Positions 1,080-23,239 are shown, counted from the first letter of the stretch. The stretch is 26,437 bases of DNA from an uncultured Dehalococcoidaceae bacterium (GCA_964453865.1 CAYVPT010000001.1:1-26437); one strand, 5' to 3'. Notes: generated by a model not told the origin, from the letters alone. Numbers and translations are program-made.

Positions 1080-1646
1080 TCACTTTCCCGTAGAGACCCG
1101 TTCAATATAGCTGCCGGTGCGCGTGTCCACCTTGATAACATCGCCCACTTTGATGAAAGAAGGTGTGTCTATGCGGGCGCCCGTTTCCACGACAGAGGAT
1201 TTACTCTGCGGCGTAATCGTCGCCGTCTTGGTGGATATATCGCTTTCGATTACTTCCAGGTCGACGGTTATCGGCAGGGTGACATCGATAGGCTCATCGC
1301 CGTGCATCAGCATGGTCACCCCCATGCCTTCCTTGAGGAAATTCTTTTTATCGCCGAGTAACTCTGCGGAAATGCCGTGCTGTTCGTATGTTTCGGTATT
1401 CATGAAGATATACTGGTCGCCTTCATGGTAGAGGTATTGCTCGTCCTGGGTTGACAGGCTGGCGGTATCTACCTTTTCTCCGGAACGATAGGTACGGTCG
1501 ATAACGCCGCCGTCGCGAATGTTTTTCAGTCTGAAGCGATAAACGGAGCGTCCCTTCCCTGGCTTGGTGAATTCGGCTTCCTCTACATTGTAAAGCACGC
1601 CGTCGATGATTATCTTGGTGTTCTTGCGTACGCTGGAAATTTCCAT
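1080..1646 (-). CDS. efp: Elongation factor P
   Basis: KPGKG loop, YRSGEKV, YIFMNTETYEQ and VIKVDTRTGSYIERV motifs. The start is set at ATG 1646 behind AAGGAG, rather than the ORF-track start at 1670. Confidence 0.93.
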   Translation of the reverse strand: MEISSVRKNTKIIIDGVLYNVEEAEFTKPGKGRSVYRFRLKNIRDGGVIDRTYRSGEKVDTASLSTQDEQYLYHEGDQYIFMNTETYEQHGISAELLGDKKNFLKEGMGVTMLMHGDEPIDVTLPITVDLEVIESDISTKTATITPQSKSSVVETGARIDTPSFIKVGDVIKVDTRTGSYIERVSTGK

Positions 1647-1705
1647 TGAGGCTCCTTGTGGATTCGGCAATTTTTCATCAGGTAAATTCGGGACATGTTC
1701 ATATA

Positions 1706-1918: not shown

Positions 1919-3991
1919 TCAGAGCATATGCCCAATTCTGGCCCCGTCGGCAATGGCGTTGACTATCAGGCCGGGCTCGCCGCAGCTGCCGATGTTATGT
2001 ATTTCCGGTGCTTTTCCTTCCAGGCTTTTCATTATTTCGTCGTTCGGCAGGTAAGGCAGGGTCACCAGAACAGTATCGGCTTCCAGGGTCTTCTTCTCGC
2101 CTTCCCGGGTGGTAATGACCAGACCTTTGTCAGTCACTTCCTCGTATTTAGCTTCGGTGTACCGGGGTATGCCTTTTTTATCCAGCCAGGGGAGAAAGCG
2201 CATCAGGTCCTCGACGGGTATGCCGTCGCCCAGCTCTTTTTCCGTATGCACGATGGTCACCCGGCGACCGCGCTTGATGAGGAATTCGGCGGTCTCGCAG
2301 CCGTGGATAGCCCCACCGACAATGACCACCCTTTTCCCGATAGGCATCCAGATTTTGGTCAGTCGCTGCAGCATCTTGACGCCGAAAAATTTCATGAAAA
2401 AGCGGAGCTGCCGGTGTAATTTCGAGCTGTTAAGGACACTACCGCGATTACTGCCGGGTATCTCGAGGTAGCTGGGTACAGCCCCCGCCGCCAGCACCAG
2501 CACATCCGGTTTAACGGCGTCGATATCACCGACGCCCACTTCTTTACCGAGATTAACGGCGACCTTTTCTTTGGTCATCTGGGTCTTGAAATACTCCACC
2601 AGAGCCAGGAAGTCGTCTCTCTCAACGCCCTTGAGCATTGCCGCCGTGGGCACCAGGCCGCCCAGCCGCGGATTTTTCTCATGGAGGCTTACCTCGTGTC
2701 CCCGATGCGCTGCCATTCGCGCCGCCTCCAGGCCGGAAGGCCCGCCGCCTATCACCATGATTTTTTTCTTTTTCCCGGCGGGTTTGAATGTGAATTCTCT
2801 CTCTTTGCCCAGGGAAGCATTGACCATGCATTCGAGGAGTTGGTTCTTATTGCGTACATCGATGCAGTGAAGGCAGCCGGTGCAGGGTCGGATATCATCG
2901 GTCTTGCCGGCGATTACCTTGTTGGGCAACTCGGGGTCGGCCAGCAGGCGCCGGGTCATGCCCACGAAGTCCAGCTTTCCCTGCTGTAAATATTCCTCGC
3001 CGATGACGGGGTCGAGCCGGCAGGCACAGAAGACCGGAACCCTAACCACCTTCTTGACGGCCTCGGTGAGGGGGACCAGAGCCCCCTTGCCCTGGCGGCT
3101 CCAGTCCAGATCTTTGGGCAAATCGTCCGGCGGCTCGGGATAGAACATCTTTTCCGGCTGAATGAGCCCGTCGCGGTGATGGTAGCTGTGGGCGCGGCAC
3201 TGGATGGCATCGGCGCCGGCTTCCGCCAGCAGCCTGGCCAGTTCTACGCCTTCCTCAATGGTGGTGCCTTTGGGATGCCGGTATTCCACGATATTTATCA
3301 GGCAGGTGACCGGGAAGTCCTGGCCCAGTCGTTTTTTTATCTCCCGCACGATATCGCCCATGAAGCGGACGCGGTTTTCCAGGGTTTGAGGACCGTATTC
3401 ATCCTCGCGTTTATTCCATACCCGCGATAGAAACGTATTGATCTGGTGGCAGGTGCCCCCGTTTACCTCAACGCCGTCATAACCGGCTTTTGCGGCCCGT
3501 TCGGCGGCTTTCGCCCAGATATCGATGTATTCCAGTACCTCGTCGTGACTCATCCCTCGGGGAACAGCGAAACCCGGGCCGGGAAGCTCGGCCTCTGTCA
3601 GTGCCGAGGCGGCTTTGGTATCGCGCTTGGGCAGCAGTCCGGTGGGATTCCAGGGGCCGGCGTGCTGGAACTGGATAAACGCCGGGCAGCCTTGCTTGTG
3701 GATGACTTTAACCAGCTCGGCATAGCTGGGGATGTATTTATCGTCGTCAAGGTGGAACTGGACAGGCGGGTGCTGGACGCCCAGGGGATATTCGACGCCG
3801 CAGGACTCCGTAATGAGCAGTCCCACGCCGCCTTTAGCCATGGCTTCATAGTATGCCAGGGCTCTATCACCGACGTAGCCGGTCCGTTCTATGAAGGATG
3901 TACCGTTGGCGGTCTTTATCATGCGGTTGCGGGTGCGCACCCTGCCGATATAGGCCGGTTCGAGGAGTTTTTCAAATTGACTATGGCTCAT
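1919..3991 (-). CDS. NADH:flavin oxidoreductase, old-yellow-enzyme TIM barrel with 4Fe-4S and FAD domains (FadH/BaiCD/enoate-reductase-like architecture)
   Basis: 690 aa. N-terminal RNRMIK..GGVGLLITE, NKREDEYG, the Cys cluster CTGCLHC-x11-C, and two Rossmann motifs (GGGPSG, GGAIHG). Confidence 0.9.
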   Translation of the reverse strand: MSHSQFEKLLEPAYIGRVRTRNRMIKTANGTSFIERTGYVGDRALAYYEAMAKGGVGLLITESCGVEYPLGVQHPPVQFHLDDDKYIPSYAELVKVIHKQGCPAFIQFQHAGPWNPTGLLPKRDTKAASALTEAELPGPGFAVPRGMSHDEVLEYIDIWAKAAERAAKAGYDGVEVNGGTCHQINTFLSRVWNKREDEYGPQTLENRVRFMGDIVREIKKRLGQDFPVTCLINIVEYRHPKGTTIEEGVELARLLAEAGADAIQCRAHSYHHRDGLIQPEKMFYPEPPDDLPKDLDWSRQGKGALVPLTEAVKKVVRVPVFCACRLDPVIGEEYLQQGKLDFVGMTRRLLADPELPNKVIAGKTDDIRPCTGCLHCIDVRNKNQLLECMVNASLGKEREFTFKPAGKKKKIMVIGGGPSGLEAARMAAHRGHEVSLHEKNPRLGGLVPTAAMLKGVERDDFLALVEYFKTQMTKEKVAVNLGKEVGVGDIDAVKPDVLVLAAGAVPSYLEIPGSNRGSVLNSSKLHRQLRFFMKFFGVKMLQRLTKIWMPIGKRVVIVGGAIHGCETAEFLIKRGRRVTIVHTEKELGDGIPVEDLMRFLPWLDKKGIPRYTEAKYEEVTDKGLVITTREGEKKTLEADTVLVTLPYLPNDEIMKSLEGKAPEIHNIGSCGEPGLIVNAIADGARIGHML

Positions 3992-4011
3992 ATATACCTC
4001 GATTTTCTTCT

Positions 4012-4129
4012 GTCATTCCAGCCCCGTATCGGGGTACGGGGTAAACTCCAGCTGGAATCCAGCGGTGGGGAAAGGGTGTGGATTCTGGATCTCGGGCTGA
4101 ACTCGGGCTGAAGCCTGCGCCAGAATGAC
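4012..4129. repeat. Inverted doublet of GTCATT/AATGAC-type palindromic repeats (REPIN-like)
   Basis: Unit 4012-4062 (gtcattccagc...gctggaatccag) faces unit 4080-4129 (ggattctgg...ccagaatgac). Relatives lie at 12500-12526 and 23240-23290. Confidence 0.8.
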
Positions 4130-4155
4130 AATATTATTATCTTAAAGCTCAATAC

Positions 4156-5085
4156 TTAGCATAAATGCAGGAGCTCTTCCACGTACTTCATGGCAGGTTT
4201 GAGAGTCTCGATGGACTTGTCTAAAAGCTCTCGTTCGTCCGACTCGATATCCCACTCCTGAATCTCCCGTACGCCATTTTTCCCCAGGACGGTGGGCACG
4301 GACATGCTCAACGAATGACAGCCGTACTCGCCGTCCAGTACCACGGAACAGGGAATCATCTCACCCGTATTCTGGCTGATGGCGCGGCAAACGGCGGCAA
4401 TGCCTACGGCGGTGGTCCAGGCGGCGGTGCGTCCGGTCTTCTCTCTGAGTTCTTCCAGCAGTTTCTGTCCGTCAGGCACCTGCTGCCGGATTTTCCTTTT
4501 TATATCCTCACCGATTTTCACGGGTTTTCCGTCAACTTTAGCCGAACTGAAAAGCAGTACCTGGCTGTTGCCGTGTTCGCCGATAACCGTGCCGGCTACC
4601 CGGCTGCTCTCGACACCGAGTGCCTGTGCCAGCCTCATACGGAAGCGTATGGAGTCGTTGTATGAATAACCGAGAATCTTATGCCTGTCCAGCTCACAGC
4701 AGCGGTACATGGCGTAGTTCAGCGGGCACACGGGGTTGGTGGCGGTAAGCACCACCGCATCGGGGGAGTACTGCCTGATTTTTTTAGAGATATCCTGAAT
4801 GATAGGCAGGTTCTGGGGGAGTACCTCCATGCGTGAATGAGTAACCTGGGCGGAACCCGCGGCGACCAGTACTATATCCGATTCTTTCATGTCTGCGTAG
4901 TCGCCGGATCTCACCTGCATATCGCGTCCCGTCACTGCTGTTTCGATGTCCATAGCGTGAAGGTCCACCATGTCCTGACGCGGTGTGTCTATCAGCACCA
5001 GTTCGTCGGCCAGCCTGTTTACGGCGATACTGAAGGCGGCACAGGAACCGACATTGCCCGTGGCTCCAATTACTGTAATTTTCAT
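4156..5085 (-). CDS. Lactate/malate dehydrogenase superfamily enzyme, divergent, substrate unknown
   Basis: GATGNVG Rossmann motif, TNPV, DSIRFR (Asp168/Arg171 equivalents), GEHG (catalytic His) and a C-terminal SVPTVLGKNGV. Confidence 0.88.
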   Translation of the reverse strand: MKITVIGATGNVGSCAAFSIAVNRLADELVLIDTPRQDMVDLHAMDIETAVTGRDMQVRSGDYADMKESDIVLVAAGSAQVTHSRMEVLPQNLPIIQDISKKIRQYSPDAVVLTATNPVCPLNYAMYRCCELDRHKILGYSYNDSIRFRMRLAQALGVESSRVAGTVIGEHGNSQVLLFSSAKVDGKPVKIGEDIKRKIRQQVPDGQKLLEELREKTGRTAAWTTAVGIAAVCRAISQNTGEMIPCSVVLDGEYGCHSLSMSVPTVLGKNGVREIQEWDIESDERELLDKSIETLKPAMKYVEELLHLC

Positions 5086-5252
5086 ATATGTCCCTCAACC
5101 TGTATTTACGTAAAACGAATTAAAAACGAGAGAAAGATGCTTGTATATGTAATTATATAACATCCGGAGTATAGAATCGAATAGCAAAGGGCTGAAAAAA
5201 CGTGAAAATCAGTTATTCCATCTTCCGTTTTGAACGGGCATCATAAATCTTC

Positions 5253-6137
5253 TTACTTCTTTACTCCGAGCCATTTGGTATCGTGCTCGTTGGACAGACA
5301 TATCGCGGTGAATGCGTAGGGTTTATCCACCCTCCTGGTAATCAGTGGACAGTGTACGAATCCCTTGGGAGCGACGACCACGGTTGGAGTATCGAAGACG
5401 TGGATTTCCTGCTCCTCACCCATGGCTATCTCTATCTCCGCACCTAGGTAGTTCGGATTATCCGGGTCCATTCCTACGAATACCAGCGCCTCATCATTGG
5501 GATGAACGTGCGGGTCCTGCTCGTGCCAGGCGCCCACTCCGGTTTGGAAAGCCCAGGTAAAGTTCAGGTTAAAGCCCGGGGTATTTTTACCGCTCCAGAA
5601 ACCTATGAAGTCGGCGTTGCCGCCCCTGGTACGCTTCATGTCGTGCATTTCCATCCTGAGAATAGAGTCCCCGTACTTGTTGGCCAGCCGCGAACCTTTC
5701 TCGCGTTTGGTCAATTCGGTGGTCTTCTCTTCGGCATCGGTGGAAATCGCCAGGAAACCGAAAGGTTTGTCTACCTTCTTGGTAACGATGGGACAGTGCG
5801 ATACACCCGCCGGGAGAACGACTATCGACGGCGAGGCGATGATATGCTCTTCCCCCTCGTCTCCCATTGCCAGTTCCACTTCCGCTCCCAGGGTATTGGG
5901 ATTATCATAATCAAGCCCGGTGAAAACAAAGACCTCCCCGTAGGGATGGACGTGACCGTACTTGCCGCCGACACCCCACTGGCCTACTTTGTTGTGGTAT
6001 CCCCATACAAAGCTTATATTCAGCCCTTCAAGGTCGCTGCCCTTTGGCCAGGTAATGTACTCGGGCTTGCCGTTACCACCGGGCAGTTCGTTATAAACCA
6101 GTTTTTTTATAAAATGCCCGTATTTAGTGTCTACCAT
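5253..6137 (-). CDS. Uncharacterised tandem (double) cupin-fold protein
   Basis: Two internal repeats of HVHP-x2-E...LGAE(V/I)E..MG..E.H......V..P.G..HCP, matching cupin motifs 1 and 2 with 3-His-1-Glu ligands. Confidence 0.75.
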   Translation of the reverse strand: MVDTKYGHFIKKLVYNELPGGNGKPEYITWPKGSDLEGLNISFVWGYHNKVGQWGVGGKYGHVHPYGEVFVFTGLDYDNPNTLGAEVELAMGDEGEEHIIASPSIVVLPAGVSHCPIVTKKVDKPFGFLAISTDAEEKTTELTKREKGSRLANKYGDSILRMEMHDMKRTRGGNADFIGFWSGKNTPGFNLNFTWAFQTGVGAWHEQDPHVHPNDEALVFVGMDPDNPNYLGAEIEIAMGEEQEIHVFDTPTVVVAPKGFVHCPLITRRVDKPYAFTAICLSNEHDTKWLGVKK

Positions 6138-6182
6138 TCGCTTTTATTCTCCTTTATTTGTCTTACCCGCAATAATATAAAG

Positions 6183-7088
6183 CTAGGTTACATAGCCGCT
6201 GGGACCTTTGCCGGTGTGGCCCCAGGGGCGAACCACGGCAAATATCCAGGGTTTATCCTGCTTATTGACGATGACGGGACAGTGCGGATGCCGGGCGGGC
6301 TGTATGGCGACCGACGGCTTGGTGATGACGTGCTTCTCCATTTCCTTGCCCATGTACATCTCCACCTCCGCTCCCAGGTCGCTCAGGTCATCGGGGTCGG
6401 CTCCCATGAAAAGCAGGAACTCGGTATAGGGGTGCACGTGCGGTTTGTCGGGCACCGGGCCGAATCTATAGGGCGCCTTGTTCATGCTTTCGTAGGACAT
6501 GTGAAAATCGAAATCCTTGCCGCGAACATCCGTGATAGCGCCTTCGTGGGTATCTTGGTTGAGCGGGCCGTAGTGCCAGGGGCCGTTACGCGTGAAAGCT
6601 AGGTGCTGGACGTTTTCCCGGTACTTGGAGCGCATGAATTCGGCGTGTTTGCCGGGCTTATTACCAAGTTTAACCGTCTTGGCTTTTGTTTCCGGCGCCA
6701 GCGATATCGCCATAAAAATGAAACGGTCGTCCATTCTCTGGATAGTAGCCGGCATATGCGGCATGCCTTTGGGCACCGCTATAGCCGTCGATGTGGTAAT
6801 CATGTGAGTTTCCTTTTCCTTACCCAGGCAGAGCTCGATTTCCGCTCCCAGGTAGCCCATGTCATAGGTATCCAGCCCCATGGCTATCATCACCTGATCA
6901 TAGTCGTGCACCTCGGCTTCGTAGGGAGCCTGGCCTATTTTCCCGGCCGACCAGAACGAACCGTAGCGGATATTGACATCGTAGCCGAGGAATTTACCGT
7001 TCATCTCGGTGCCCTGCCGGAAAAGGCCTGGACCATAATCTTTAAAAGATAAGCTTTTCATCAGGTGTCCGTATTTTGTCTTTGCCAT
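6183..7088 (-). CDS. Uncharacterised tandem cupin-fold protein, paralog of the neighbouring gene
   Basis: Same two-domain motif pattern and the same TKYGH N-terminus as its neighbour. The start is set at ATG 7088 behind GGAGG. Confidence 0.75.
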   Translation of the reverse strand: MAKTKYGHLMKSLSFKDYGPGLFRQGTEMNGKFLGYDVNIRYGSFWSAGKIGQAPYEAEVHDYDQVMIAMGLDTYDMGYLGAEIELCLGKEKETHMITTSTAIAVPKGMPHMPATIQRMDDRFIFMAISLAPETKAKTVKLGNKPGKHAEFMRSKYRENVQHLAFTRNGPWHYGPLNQDTHEGAITDVRGKDFDFHMSYESMNKAPYRFGPVPDKPHVHPYTEFLLFMGADPDDLSDLGAEVEMYMGKEMEKHVITKPSVAIQPARHPHCPVIVNKQDKPWIFAVVRPWGHTGKGPSGYVT

Positions 7089-7170
7089 TTTCTGTATCCT
7101 CCGTTTAACCGTTTTGACCAAAGTATAACGTTTCATGCGATTAACTGCAACGCCGGATACTATTTATCTT

Positions 7171-7238
7171 CGGGATAAGCCGTGGATGATACGAGGGAGG
7201 TTTGGGTGGGAATAGATAACACACGAGGGGGGTGGTGG
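7171..7238 (+). repeat. G-rich dispersed repeat, copy A
   Basis: cgggataagccgtggatgatacgagggaggtttgggtgggaatagataac plus a cgaggggggtgg tail. Confidence 0.9.
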
Positions 7239-7246
7239 CTCTATTC

Positions 7247-7275
7247 TTGACAAATTTATAGCTGGCACGTATTAT
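7247..7275 (+). promoter_or_regulatory. Sigma70-type promoter
   Basis: TTGACA-N17-TATTAT immediately upstream of the ATG at 7284. Confidence 0.6.
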
Positions 7276-7283
7276 GGGAAAAC

Positions 7284-7988
7284 ATGATAAACAAGAACAA
7301 TATCTTCATCTATATCGCTCTGGTTATAACCCCAACAATTTTCCTGATTGTGGAACACTATACCCACATCGAGTTCCTGCTGCATCTGGCAGCCATACCC
7401 CTCGAGGTGCTGGTGGCGGTATTCATCGTCGAGATGTATCTCGAAAGCCGGCAGAAGAAGGAGAGACGGCGCCAATTGATGCACATCAAGAGCTGCATGT
7501 TCCGCCTGGAAATGCGTAACCTGTTCGTAGCCAATTTTATGGCTTTGAAATCGCCGCCTTTGACCATCGCCCTGATAAAAGCGGCCACCTTAGATGAACT
7601 TAAAAAGATGAGGGAGGATGCCAACAGCATCGAATACCAATCACTGGAAGCGATGGAGCCGGTTATCATGGAATACGTCGAAGCCCAGTCAGTATGGCGT
7701 AATTTCATGAATATCGCCCTGGATTACGGTTTTGACGATATCTTTCACGATATGGTATATATCCTGCATTTTATCAGCGACGTGAAGAGTTATAAAGAGA
7801 ATAATCCGGGTAAGCTGTTTATCCATAAAGCCGCCAGCCACGAGTTACTGATGCAGAAAGTAAAAAAGGTTCTGGGTGACGGCATACGCAAGTATCTGGA
7901 CTATGCGATAGAGCTCAAGGAACAACAGCCGGAACTCTTTGACGAAATAGTCGCCGATTACGAACTGGCTACCCATATAAGAAGCTAG
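7284..7988 (+). CDS. Hypothetical protein with two N-terminal transmembrane segments and a helical cytoplasmic domain
   Basis: 234 aa ORF with hydrophobic residues at about 7-24 and 30-53, followed by the basic stretch RQKKERRRQ. It has its own promoter. Confidence 0.75.
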   Translation: MINKNNIFIYIALVITPTIFLIVEHYTHIEFLLHLAAIPLEVLVAVFIVEMYLESRQKKERRRQLMHIKSCMFRLEMRNLFVANFMALKSPPLTIALIKAATLDELKKMREDANSIEYQSLEAMEPVIMEYVEAQSVWRNFMNIALDYGFDDIFHDMVYILHFISDVKSYKENNPGKLFIHKAASHELLMQKVKKVLGDGIRKYLDYAIELKEQQPELFDEIVADYELATHIRS

Positions 7989-13620: not shown

Positions 13621-13668
13621 CGGGCTAAGCCGTTGATGATACGAGGGCGGCCGGGTGGGATGGATAGA
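13621..13668 (+). repeat. G-rich dispersed repeat, copy B
   Basis: cgggctaagccgttgatgatacgagggcggccgggtgggatggataga. Confidence 0.85.
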
Positions 13669-13747: not shown

Positions 13748-13815
13748 CAGGGCTAAGCTGTAGATGATGCGAGGGTGGCTAGGGTGGGAATAGATAACAT
13801 ACGGAAGGGGTGGGG
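13748..13815 (+). repeat. G-rich dispersed repeat, copy C
   Basis: cagggctaagctgtagatgatgcgagggtggctagggtgggaatagataac plus a G-rich tail. Confidence 0.85.
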
Positions 13816-14850: not shown

Positions 14851-14927
14851 CGGGCTAAGCCGTAAATGACACGAGGGCGGCCCGGGTGGGAAAAGATAAC
14901 AGACGATAGGGGGTAAAGGGGGGAGGA
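14851..14927 (+). repeat. G-rich dispersed repeat, copy D
   Basis: cgggctaagccgtaaatgacacgagggcggcccgggtgggaaaagataac. Its tail ends in GGAGGAG, the RBS of the next gene. Confidence 0.88.
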
Positions 14928-20381: not shown

Positions 20382-20447
20382 CGGGCTAAGCCGTGGATGA
20401 TGCGAGGGCGGTTCGGGTGGGAATAGATAACATCGAGGGGTGGAGGG
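20382..20447 (+). repeat. G-rich dispersed repeat, copy E
   Basis: cgggctaagccgtggatgatgcgagggcggttcgggtgggaatagataacatcgaggggtggaggg. Confidence 0.9.
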
Positions 20448-23169: not shown

Positions 23170-23239
23170 CGGGATAAGCCGTGGATGAAACTGGGCGGAC
23201 TGGGTGGGAATAGATAAAAACCGAGGGGAGTGGAGGGGG
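23170..23239 (+). repeat. G-rich dispersed repeat, copy F
   Basis: cgggataagccgtggatgaaactgggcggactgggtgggaatagataa plus a cgaggggagtggaggggg tail. Confidence 0.88.

Follow-up and report, generated by a model that had tools for sequence, protein, structure and literature searches.

The stretch CAYVPT010000001.1:1-26437 (assembly GCA_964453865.1; 26,437 nucleotides (nt), here called the window) comes from an uncultured Dehalococcoidaceae bacterium. Four consecutive genes on its minus strand encode two paralogous double-barrel cupins (bicupins), CupA and CupB, a dehydrogenase of the lactate/malate dehydrogenase (LDH/MDH) fold and an Fe-S flavoenzyme of the Old Yellow Enzyme (OYE) type. These genes form two separately conserved pairs, cupA-cupB and LDH-OYE, which lie side by side only in the bacterium's own genus. 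The explanation that accounts best for the whole locus, two separate conserved units together with predicted O2-independent cupin enzymes, has in our estimate a probability of about 55%. New are the division of a supposed module into two pairs, the pairing of an LDH-like dehydrogenase with an OYE that carries a histidine in place of the usual proton donor (His-type OYE), and the enrichment of non-orthologous cupins at this OYE clade. A literature search found no paper on the cupin family or on the LDH-OYE pair.

Two gene pairs beside efp

Open reading frame (ORF) calling on the window placed the four genes at 1919-3991, 4156-5085, 5253-6137 and 6183-7136. In the direction of transcription, cupA (6183-7088, 301 amino acids (aa)) is followed by cupB (5253-6137, 294 aa), the gene of the LDH/MDH-fold, NAD-dependent 2-hydroxyacid dehydrogenase (4156-5085, 309 aa, Pfam Ldh_1_N and Ldh_1_C) and the gene of the OYE/FadH-type flavoenzyme (1919-3991, 690 aa, Pfam Oxidored_FMN and Pyr_redox_2). 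The true start of cupA is most likely the ATG at 7088 and not the end of the ORF at 7136: GGAGG is located 9 nt upstream of this ATG, and the orthologs open with MAKTKYGH. Together, the ORFs, the Pfam matches and an identity of 32% between the two cupins confirmed the order and kind of the genes as read by a first-pass annotation.

Sixty-two loci with cupB relatives from different species were fetched, and the gene order was analyzed in 54 of them. Among these species-level loci, an OYE or LDH ortholog was present beside cupB only in the same-genus genome, at 95% identity. One further locus (L066) contained a distant OYE paralog (28% identical) downstream of cupB. A cupA ortholog (53-85% identical) was found directly upstream of cupB in 22 loci. 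In four species (L031, L034, L036 and L037) cupB is directly followed by efp, which shows that the place held by LDH-OYE here, between cupB and efp, is a variable one. The genome G056 displayed the order epmA-efp-OYE-LDH.

The LDH-like protein was searched in 61 genomes of the taxonomic family, and proteins of at least 48% identity were counted as orthologs. Such orthologs were obtained from 14 genomes belonging to at least 11 genera. In all 14 genomes the OYE ortholog is located immediately downstream of LDH on the same strand, in most of them after a gap of 25-70 nt, and no third gene conserved with the pair was found in this set. A cupin gene lies at most two genes away from LDH-OYE in six of the 14 genomes, while the other eight have none within two genes. 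Outside the genus, the cupins next to LDH-OYE are orthologs of other paralogs in the bacterium's own genome (C394, C144, C261 and C103; four genera). In the genome G009 the cupin gene shares the strand of LDH and immediately precedes it.

The first-pass annotation had regarded all four genes as one module, an idea that did not hold at the level of orthologs, as LDH and OYE adjoin cupB only within the genus. Of the linkage that it had expected among the families, the constant LDH-OYE pair and the enrichment of cupins by the OYE clade (see below) were recovered; cupA-cupB orthologs outside the genus occur without LDH and OYE. The corrective value of the comparison lies in replacing the supposed single module by two units.

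The genes adjoining cupA-cupB in different species are of several kinds. We observed a divergent family III CoA-transferase, often accompanied by an extra single cupin of ~185 aa (12 loci), a same-strand GlcD/GlcF/GlcE-like 2-hydroxyacid oxidoreductase set (4 loci), an aldo/keto reductase with a ferredoxin domain (4 loci), a set of NuoF-like, Nfn/GltD-like and FAD_binding_2 reductase proteins (3 loci), and PPDK_N plus Glu_synthase-like proteins (3 loci).

Gaps of about 165 nt, one of them with a REP doublet, had been described for the locus. This is accurate for the two outer junctions, which measure 164 and 167 nt; cupB and cupA are separated by 45 nt, with AAGGAG ahead of cupB. The OYE-LDH gap (3992-4155) harbors two dispersed REP/MITE-like repeat elements with ~12 and ~4 further genomic copies and contains an inverted match (I3). 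In total, 18 blastn-short matches to this gap were obtained in the own genome, self included. Its width, compared with the 25-70 nt seen in most genera, is due to the dispersed repeats sitting there. The LDH-cupB gap (5086-5252), at which the two conserved pairs meet, is AT-rich unique sequence, and blastn-short against the own genome found no further copies of it. A scan of the minus strand detected neither a promoter nor a terminator in the two long gaps, the consensus applied being one that may not suit Dehalococcoidales. Repeats at 1821-1874 and 4012-4140, with ~14 and ~12 extra genomic copies, bracket the OYE gene. Their presence on both sides of OYE fits an LDH-OYE pair located in a rearrangement-prone spot by efp.

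The cupin pair and its family

CupA and CupB matched each other with an E-value of 2e-43, and every half could be aligned with the other halves, from which it follows that the two proteins contain four copies of one ~130-aa module. The barrels are encoded at ~6696-7079 and ~6231-6626 in cupA and at ~5739-6128 and ~5292-5681 in cupB. Neither protein was matched by any Pfam or NCBIfam model even at E=10. Pfam Cupin_2 is reached by 20 of 88 distant relatives (best E-value 1.1e-9), and because of these matches and the predicted fold, membership in the cupin superfamily stands despite the missing match to a curated model. An AlphaFold (AF2) model of CupB built on 45 orthologs (pLDDT 94.6, pTM 0.92) consists of two all-beta barrels. 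Structure prediction thus supported the tandem-cupin architecture proposed earlier, with a bicupin model matching the OxdC fold: in a Foldseek search with this model Bacillus OxdC ranked first (E 6e-16, 12% identity). A VIA structural search with CupB residues 1-294 gave Z-scores of 15-18 to bicupins, namely 17.8 for the quercetinase YxaG, 17.3 for OxdC, 16.4 for an IolB-like protein, 15.5 for BacB and 14.7 for AerE. OxdC and YxaG, the best whole-chain matches, carry a 3-His-1-Glu site in both barrels, like CupB. In contrast to CupB, they are 335-385 aa long, possess extra helical arms and need O2; their identity to CupB is 12-13%, and no model of their families matches the cupins.

Three of the four barrels (CupB-N, CupB-C and CupA-C) contain the ligands H-x-H-x3-E...P-x-G-x2-H followed by Cys-Pro. 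The metal sets of CupB are H62/H64/E68/H114 and H210/H212/E216/H262, the latter followed by C263, and CupA-C has the full HHEH set plus the Cys. The site of the CupA N-barrel reads E-H-Q-H. This remodeling is kept in 22 orthologs, in which the first ligand is E, H, Q, V or D and the Gln is invariant.

A profile of 19 single domains from the own genome (domain profile A3) searched against the PDB found only two solved relatives, 6j4b (E 6.8e-6) and 7eqk (E 4.3e-4), the latter entitled 'a novel non-heme iron epimerase/lyase'. A single-sequence phmmer search against the PDB likewise returned small cupins only (6j4b, E 0.002; 7eqk, E 0.26), and 7eqk reached a Z-score of 9.8 at 21% identity in the VIA search. 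The only solved proteins found by sequence thus share core motifs with the window cupins, namely HxHxxDE, the gA-IE-l-dG-h insert and IPAGxxHC. They are single barrels of ~125 aa, whereas in the window cupins two barrels are fused, an N-terminal KYG segment is present and the insert between the motifs is longer. Probably, 6j4b and 7eqk are beta-methyl-indolepyruvate epimerases of the MarH/StnK3 type, and they presumably originate from actinomycete antibiotic clusters with a methyltransferase and an aminotransferase. A Pfam scan of the window found neither a methyltransferase nor an aminotransferase beside cupA-cupB. Unlike 6j4b and 7eqk, the window cupins belong to catabolic or redox neighborhoods and to a set of 69 paralogs. 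StnK3 is a cupin epimerase that acts on a 2-oxo acid independently of O2 via enolization at C3 (PMC4742848).

Two further bicupins matched CupB over nearly the whole chain, BacB (3h7j; Z 15.5, 214/224 residues aligned) and AerE (5zbf; Z 14.7, 204/210). Both share only 13-15% identity with CupB and were absent from the phmmer and profile matches in the PDB. BacB binds phenylpyruvate at its metal site and was called an oxidase in the 2009 paper (PMC2797259); AerE is a bicupin with bound 4-hydroxyphenylpyruvate, as stated in the title of PDB entry 5zbf. The two proteins are biosynthetic and not catabolic, and their prephenate decarboxylase partner is not present here. Later work reportedly assigned an isomerase role to BacB. 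During the synthesis of bacilysin, a C=C bond is reduced with NADH after the BacB step, which is a parallel to a cupin located next to an ene-reductase.

In the ESM Atlas only unnamed Chloroflexota clusters were found, and in one of these clusters 33% of the members bear Cupin_2. Relatives of CupB (32-38% identical) are also encoded in metagenome-assembled genomes (MAGs) of Bathyarchaeia/Nitrososphaerota and in one MAG of Eubacteriales Family XIII (L083-L085 and L088), and the cupin family is therefore not confined to Chloroflexota.

In the own genome the family comprises 69 genes with 81 domains, which is the largest paralog cluster and amounts to 2.4% of all genes. Its members are single-domain proteins of ~150 aa, often encoded in tandems of 2-4, and twelve two-domain forms. 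Of 18 other genera of the taxonomic family, 11 contain 16-74 matches per ~2-Mb genome and the rest none; most of the order has no match. The metal site is HHEH in 49 and HHQH in 17 of the 81 domains, so that 66 keep three His plus Glu or Gln and 15 lack the full His set. On account of these 66 domains the cupins are probably enzymes. No DNA-binding or signaling domain was found fused to members of the family among the distant relatives scanned. Two distant members carry an N-terminal enoyl-CoA hydratase (ECH) domain. In one such protein, P0204 (463 aa, metagenomic), an enoyl-CoA hydratase/isomerase domain at residues 9-202 precedes a cupin module at 355-453. As evidence for CoA substrates the ECH-cupin fusion is no more than a hint, because just one or two metagenomic proteins show it and it may stem from faulty gene calling.

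Within two genes of a cupin gene, the OYE cluster was the most enriched gene cluster of the own genome, with four of eight members compared with a background of 5.7% (hypergeometric p=6e-4 before correction for multiple testing). In five other genomes a cupin gene was found at most three genes away at 7 of 20 OYE loci. When only the His-type subclade (at least 43% identical to the window OYE) was considered, 5 of 8 loci in these genomes had a cupin nearby. The recurrent adjacency with non-orthologous cupins argues for a functional tie at the level of the families and not for inherited synteny, because the association recurs with different cupin paralogs; the comparison is indicative only.

Other genes next to cupin genes belong to several families, whose total copy numbers in the genome are given in brackets: pyrogallol-hydroxytransferase-like molybdopterin enzymes (33), aldehyde:ferredoxin oxidoreductases (19), family 5 solute-binding proteins (18), proteins of the size of short-chain dehydrogenases/reductases (SDR; 37), aldo/keto reductases and a Zn-dependent alcohol dehydrogenase. 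Examples in the own genome are L140:2836-5445 (-), L141:876-3545 (-), L142:4565-6400 (-) and L143:6587-8434 (+).

An LDH-fold dehydrogenase paired with a His-type flavoenzyme

The LDH-like protein matched Ldh_1_N (2.1e-26) and Ldh_1_C (8.1e-24), and its best PDB matches were haloarchaeal MDHs (4e-57). In an alignment to haloarchaeal MDH it retained the equivalents of Arg109, Asp168, Arg171 and His195 as well as the NAD-binding Asp. Both Pfam domains and the catalytic set are thus shared with LDH-like (type 3) MDH and with L-LDH. Position 102, which is Arg in MDH and Gln in LDH, is Ala79 in the window protein, in a loop that is one residue shorter; the same loop was present in orthologs from three other genomes. 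The scores against the curated NCBIfam models remained below the cut-offs (malate dehydrogenase, 231 vs 283; L-LDH, 211 vs 303.55). Because both residue 102 and the curated scores fail, the protein was classed by its fold, as an LDH-fold 2-hydroxyacid dehydrogenase whose specificity is probably neither of the MDH nor of the LDH type. In a further difference from those enzymes it is always paired with OYE. The sole other LDH/MDH-fold gene of the own genome (C7:19313-20272 (-)) encodes a protein with a longer, unusual substrate loop (GIGVTQGARSRDGQLTSR). A textbook MDH/LDH substrate loop was not seen in either of the two LDH/MDH-fold genes of the assembly.

The OYE matched Oxidored_FMN with 1.7e-49 and Pyr_redox_2 with 2.8e-29. 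It is built of an FMN-binding TIM barrel, a [4Fe-4S] motif (C370-x2-C373-x2-C376...C388) and a C-terminal FAD/NAD(P)H domain, which is the three-domain architecture of FadH and NCR, and its four cluster cysteines align with theirs. The nearest solved proteins are 2-naphthoyl-CoA reductase (6qkg, 1.6e-74) and the 2,4-dienoyl-CoA reductase FadH (1ps9, 8e-60). The first-pass annotation had called the protein enoate-reductase-like; its nature as an Fe-S OYE was confirmed, and the label proved to be loose in view of these nearest relatives. The scores against all NCBIfam equivalogs again fell short of the cut-offs, and by a wide margin (BaiCD, 328 vs 825; bilirubin reductase, 333 vs 750; mycofactocin OYE2, 367 vs 793).

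At the place of the FadH proton donor Tyr166 (OYE Tyr196) the window protein has His182, within the motif N-G-G-T-C-H, and the classical H/N pair is missing. The change is conserved in the cupin-associated subclade (at least 43% identical), which shows N-G/A-x-S/T-C/S-H. The motifs of the remaining OYE clades in these genomes differ from it, and one paralog clade in a related genome (G007_26) has the classical H-G-A-H-G-Y. The enoate-reductase motif H-x-x-H/N-G-Y was not found in the window OYE by motif comparison, as distinct from a direct alignment with enoate reductases. Ala79 and His182 substantiate the non-standard active sites that had been noticed in both enzymes. A second His-type OYE clade of ~700 aa, 43-47% identical to the window OYE, was encountered at L110:3292-6806 (-), L106:4949-10185 and L148:8350-11456 (-). 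In several genomes two or three single-domain cupin genes follow these OYE genes on the same strand, an arrangement that is tighter and more operon-like than that of the window.

The combination of a 2-hydroxyacid dehydrogenase with an OYE-type Fe-S flavoenzyme is likewise found in the clostridial Stickland-type aryl-lactate pathway (fldH, fldA, fldIBC, fldZ/acyl-CoA dehydrogenase). As in that pathway, family III CoA-transferases are located near some cupA-cupB and OYE-cupin loci. Unlike its counterpart there, the window dehydrogenase has the L-LDH fold and not the fold of D-2-hydroxyacid dehydrogenases. Neither a 2-hydroxyacyl-CoA dehydratase with its activator nor a CoA-transferase was detected in the window: among 20 window ORFs scanned, none matched HGD-D, BcrAD_BadFG or CoA_transf_3. 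Other contigs of the own genome contain three HGD-D-type genes and ~11 family III CoA-transferase genes, one of which adjoins the OYE-cupin locus on contig C194. In sum, each of the four proteins falls into a known superfamily and, judged by the sequence comparisons, none qualifies as a member of a characterized family.

Possible function, alternative readings and surroundings of the locus

The assembly comprises 2.78 Mb in 496 contigs and is 85.5% complete. The related genomes are MAGs of uncultured Dehalococcoidaceae/Dehalococcoidales that come from peat, fens and the sediment of aquifers; an enterobacterial origin, considered because of the GC content, was dropped, as a megablast search against E. 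coli genomes gave no match. In this 85.5%-complete genome no genes for COX1 (heme-copper oxidase) or cytochrome bd were found. The organism being anaerobic, the cupins most likely work without O2.

The first unit consists of an NAD-linked LDH-fold 2-hydroxyacid dehydrogenase and, following it, an NAD(P)H-dependent FMN/[4Fe-4S]/FAD reductase of the FadH/naphthoyl-CoA-reductase type. Because both enzymes have altered residues on the substrate side, their substrate is probably neither lactate or malate nor a classical enoate. The second unit, cupA-cupB, provides four barrels, three of them with a canonical 3-His-1-Glu site and one remodeled. The following scheme, to which we give somewhat less than even odds, would connect the two. 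The cupins might be O2-independent metalloenzymes that enolize a metal-bound intermediate of the 2-oxo-acid type (or a beta-dicarbonyl or enol) and thereby catalyze isomerization, epimerization or C-C/C-X lysis. The 2-hydroxy and 2-oxo forms would be converted into each other by the LDH-like enzyme, the cupin would shift a double bond or stereocenter or cleave next to the 2-oxo group, and the activated C=C (or ring) bond formed in this way would be the target of reduction by the flavoenzyme. By means of different cupin paralogs, different substrates derived from plants would gain access to the same redox enzymes. A 2-hydroxy/2-oxo-acid substrate fits, since two non-homologous 2-hydroxyacid oxidoreductases, the LDH-fold and the GlcDEF-like enzymes, adjoin cupA-cupB in different genera.

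Several points weigh against this interpretation. The fold matches are generic for bicupins, with quercetinase and oxalate decarboxylase outscoring BacB, and the profile matches to 6j4b and 7eqk span only ~65 core residues. The neighbors of cupA-cupB are heterogeneous (CoA-transferase III, PPDK_N plus Glu_synthase-like proteins, AKR-Fer4, ABC-F and P-type ATPase) and imply no single pathway. As cupins make up 2.4% of the genes, some adjacency arises by chance, and the compared genomes are kin, so that the statistics overstate the association. The 167-nt LDH-cupB gap gives no sign of co-transcription. It is possible that the substrates are CoA thioesters instead of free 2-oxo acids. The CoA-independent route suggested by the first-pass annotation gained no support: the closest solved relatives of OYE reduce CoA esters, CoA-transferase III genes flank cupA-cupB (12 loci) and the OYE-cupin locus, and ECH-cupin fusions occur.

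The original proposal was a single four-gene, CoA-independent, Stickland-like operon, in which the bicupins act as dehydratase, lyase or isomerase between the LDH-like enzyme and OYE. The four genes are indeed adjacent and co-oriented, LDH-OYE is a conserved pair, cupins are enriched by the OYE clade, and in G009 a cupin gene precedes LDH on the same strand. We nevertheless consider the operon improbable, as cupA and cupB orthologs have neither LDH nor OYE beside them in all species outside the genus, a cupin within two genes is missing at 8 of 14 LDH-OYE loci, and where a cupin gene lies near the pair in another genus it is a different paralog, in two cases with divergent transcription. The gaps of 164 and 167 nt and the resemblance of OYE to CoA-ester reductases, with no H..H..Y motif of enoate reductases, point in the same direction. 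The chemistry is a further obstacle. In 2-hydroxyacyl-CoA dehydratases the alpha,beta-dehydration needs a radical or thioester route, the C3-H being otherwise not acidic. Dehydration of a free 2-hydroxy acid would require the same, so that a cupin is chemically unlikely as 2-hydroxyacid dehydratase, and HGD-D-type genes are located elsewhere in the genome. Conversely, two unrelated pairs could have landed by efp in a repeat-rich spot by chance, their adjacency reflecting the abundance of cupins. The surroundings of efp show at least three arrangements, namely cupA-cupB-efp, cupA-cupB-LDH-OYE-efp, and efp-OYE-LDH, the last with another cupin paralog located two genes upstream of LDH. Dispersed repeats lie on both sides of the OYE gene, 5.7% of all genes have a cupin gene at most two genes away, and the remainder of the window consists of housekeeping genes. 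Chance would leave unexplained that OYE is the top enriched neighbor family (4/8 vs 5.7% expected) and that cupins which are not orthologous are again found next to it in four other genera and at 5/8 loci of the same OYE subclade. We regard such a juxtaposition as unlikely, albeit as one to be taken seriously.

Two further alternatives concern the cupins themselves. Quercetinase-, gentisate- or oxalate-decarboxylase-like bicupins would, where conditions are micro-oxic, use O2 to cleave rings or break down oxalate. Such a role is suggested by the top fold matches, YxaG (Z 17.8) and OxdC (Z 17.3), and by the same 3-His-1-Glu site. It becomes very improbable in view of an identity of only 9-13%, the failure of all sequence models of those families to match, the terminal oxidases not found in the 85.5%-complete genome and neighbors that are oxygen-sensitive Fe-S, tungsten and molybdenum enzymes; moreover, 69 paralogs are hard to square with an O2-dependent role in Dehalococcoidales. 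Still less credible are non-catalytic cupins serving as ligand sensors, metal buffers, or accessory or chaperone subunits of the neighboring redox enzymes. The remodeled CupA barrel site conserved in orthologs, the 15 of 81 domains without a full His set and the small cupins in tandems of 2-4 beside large oxidoreductases would be in line with this idea. They are opposed by the 66 of 81 domains that keep all three His plus Glu or Gln and by the lack of a fused DNA-binding or signaling domain, and the closest solved sequence relatives include an enzyme.

Two conserved units with O2-independent cupins, the reading that we prefer, offer two targets for expression: the dehydrogenase/flavoenzyme pair, whose active sites are altered and which is conserved in at least 11 genera, and the cupin pair, found in 22 loci. 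To judge from the sources of the related MAGs, these bacteria occur widely in peat, fens and the sediments of aquifers, and their life without organohalide respiration is largely inferred from genomes. The devotion of 2.4% of the genes to one cupin family, together with 33 pyrogallol-transhydroxylase-like and 19 aldehyde:ferredoxin oxidoreductase genes, points to new anaerobic chemistry on plant-derived compounds. A rather speculative extension, which we think doubtful, is that the 'KYG' cupin family serves non-dehalogenating Dehalococcoidales of peat and sediment as a modular O2-independent toolkit of isomerases, epimerases and lyases. It would funnel intermediates of plant polyphenols and organic acids into few shared redox enzymes, equally speculatively the LDH-like/His-type OYE pair, pyrogallol-transhydroxylase-like Mo enzymes and tungsten aldehyde oxidoreductases. 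If true, this would be a previously unrecognized enzyme class central to anaerobic carbon turnover.

The genes flanking the two pairs have housekeeping functions (epmA, efp, dnaN, moaC/moaA, class V FBPase, purM and purH). The efp gene (1080-1670, minus strand, Pfam EFP domains) has a promoter-like site nearby at 1734-1706 in the consensus scan. Upstream of cupA and outside both pairs, the divergent gap between cupA and orf234 contains a G-rich dispersed repeat (7171-7235, plus strand, repeat family D1/D2). An Rfam scan returned no match for the gaps or for this repeat and identified two tRNAs elsewhere only. The gap gave 103 blastn-short matches in the own genome, self included. Within the window the ~60-nt G-rich intergenic repeat also occurs at 13621-13655, 13749-13813, 14851-14915, 20382-20446 and 23170-23233. 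The gene orf234 (7284-7988, plus strand) encodes 234 aa with a hydrophobic N-terminus and is divergent from cupA. Pfam and NCBIfam yielded no match for its product, and the same-genus genome was the only one in which a homolog turned up. Ahead of orf234, at 7247-7275, there is a strong match to a sigma-70-like promoter.

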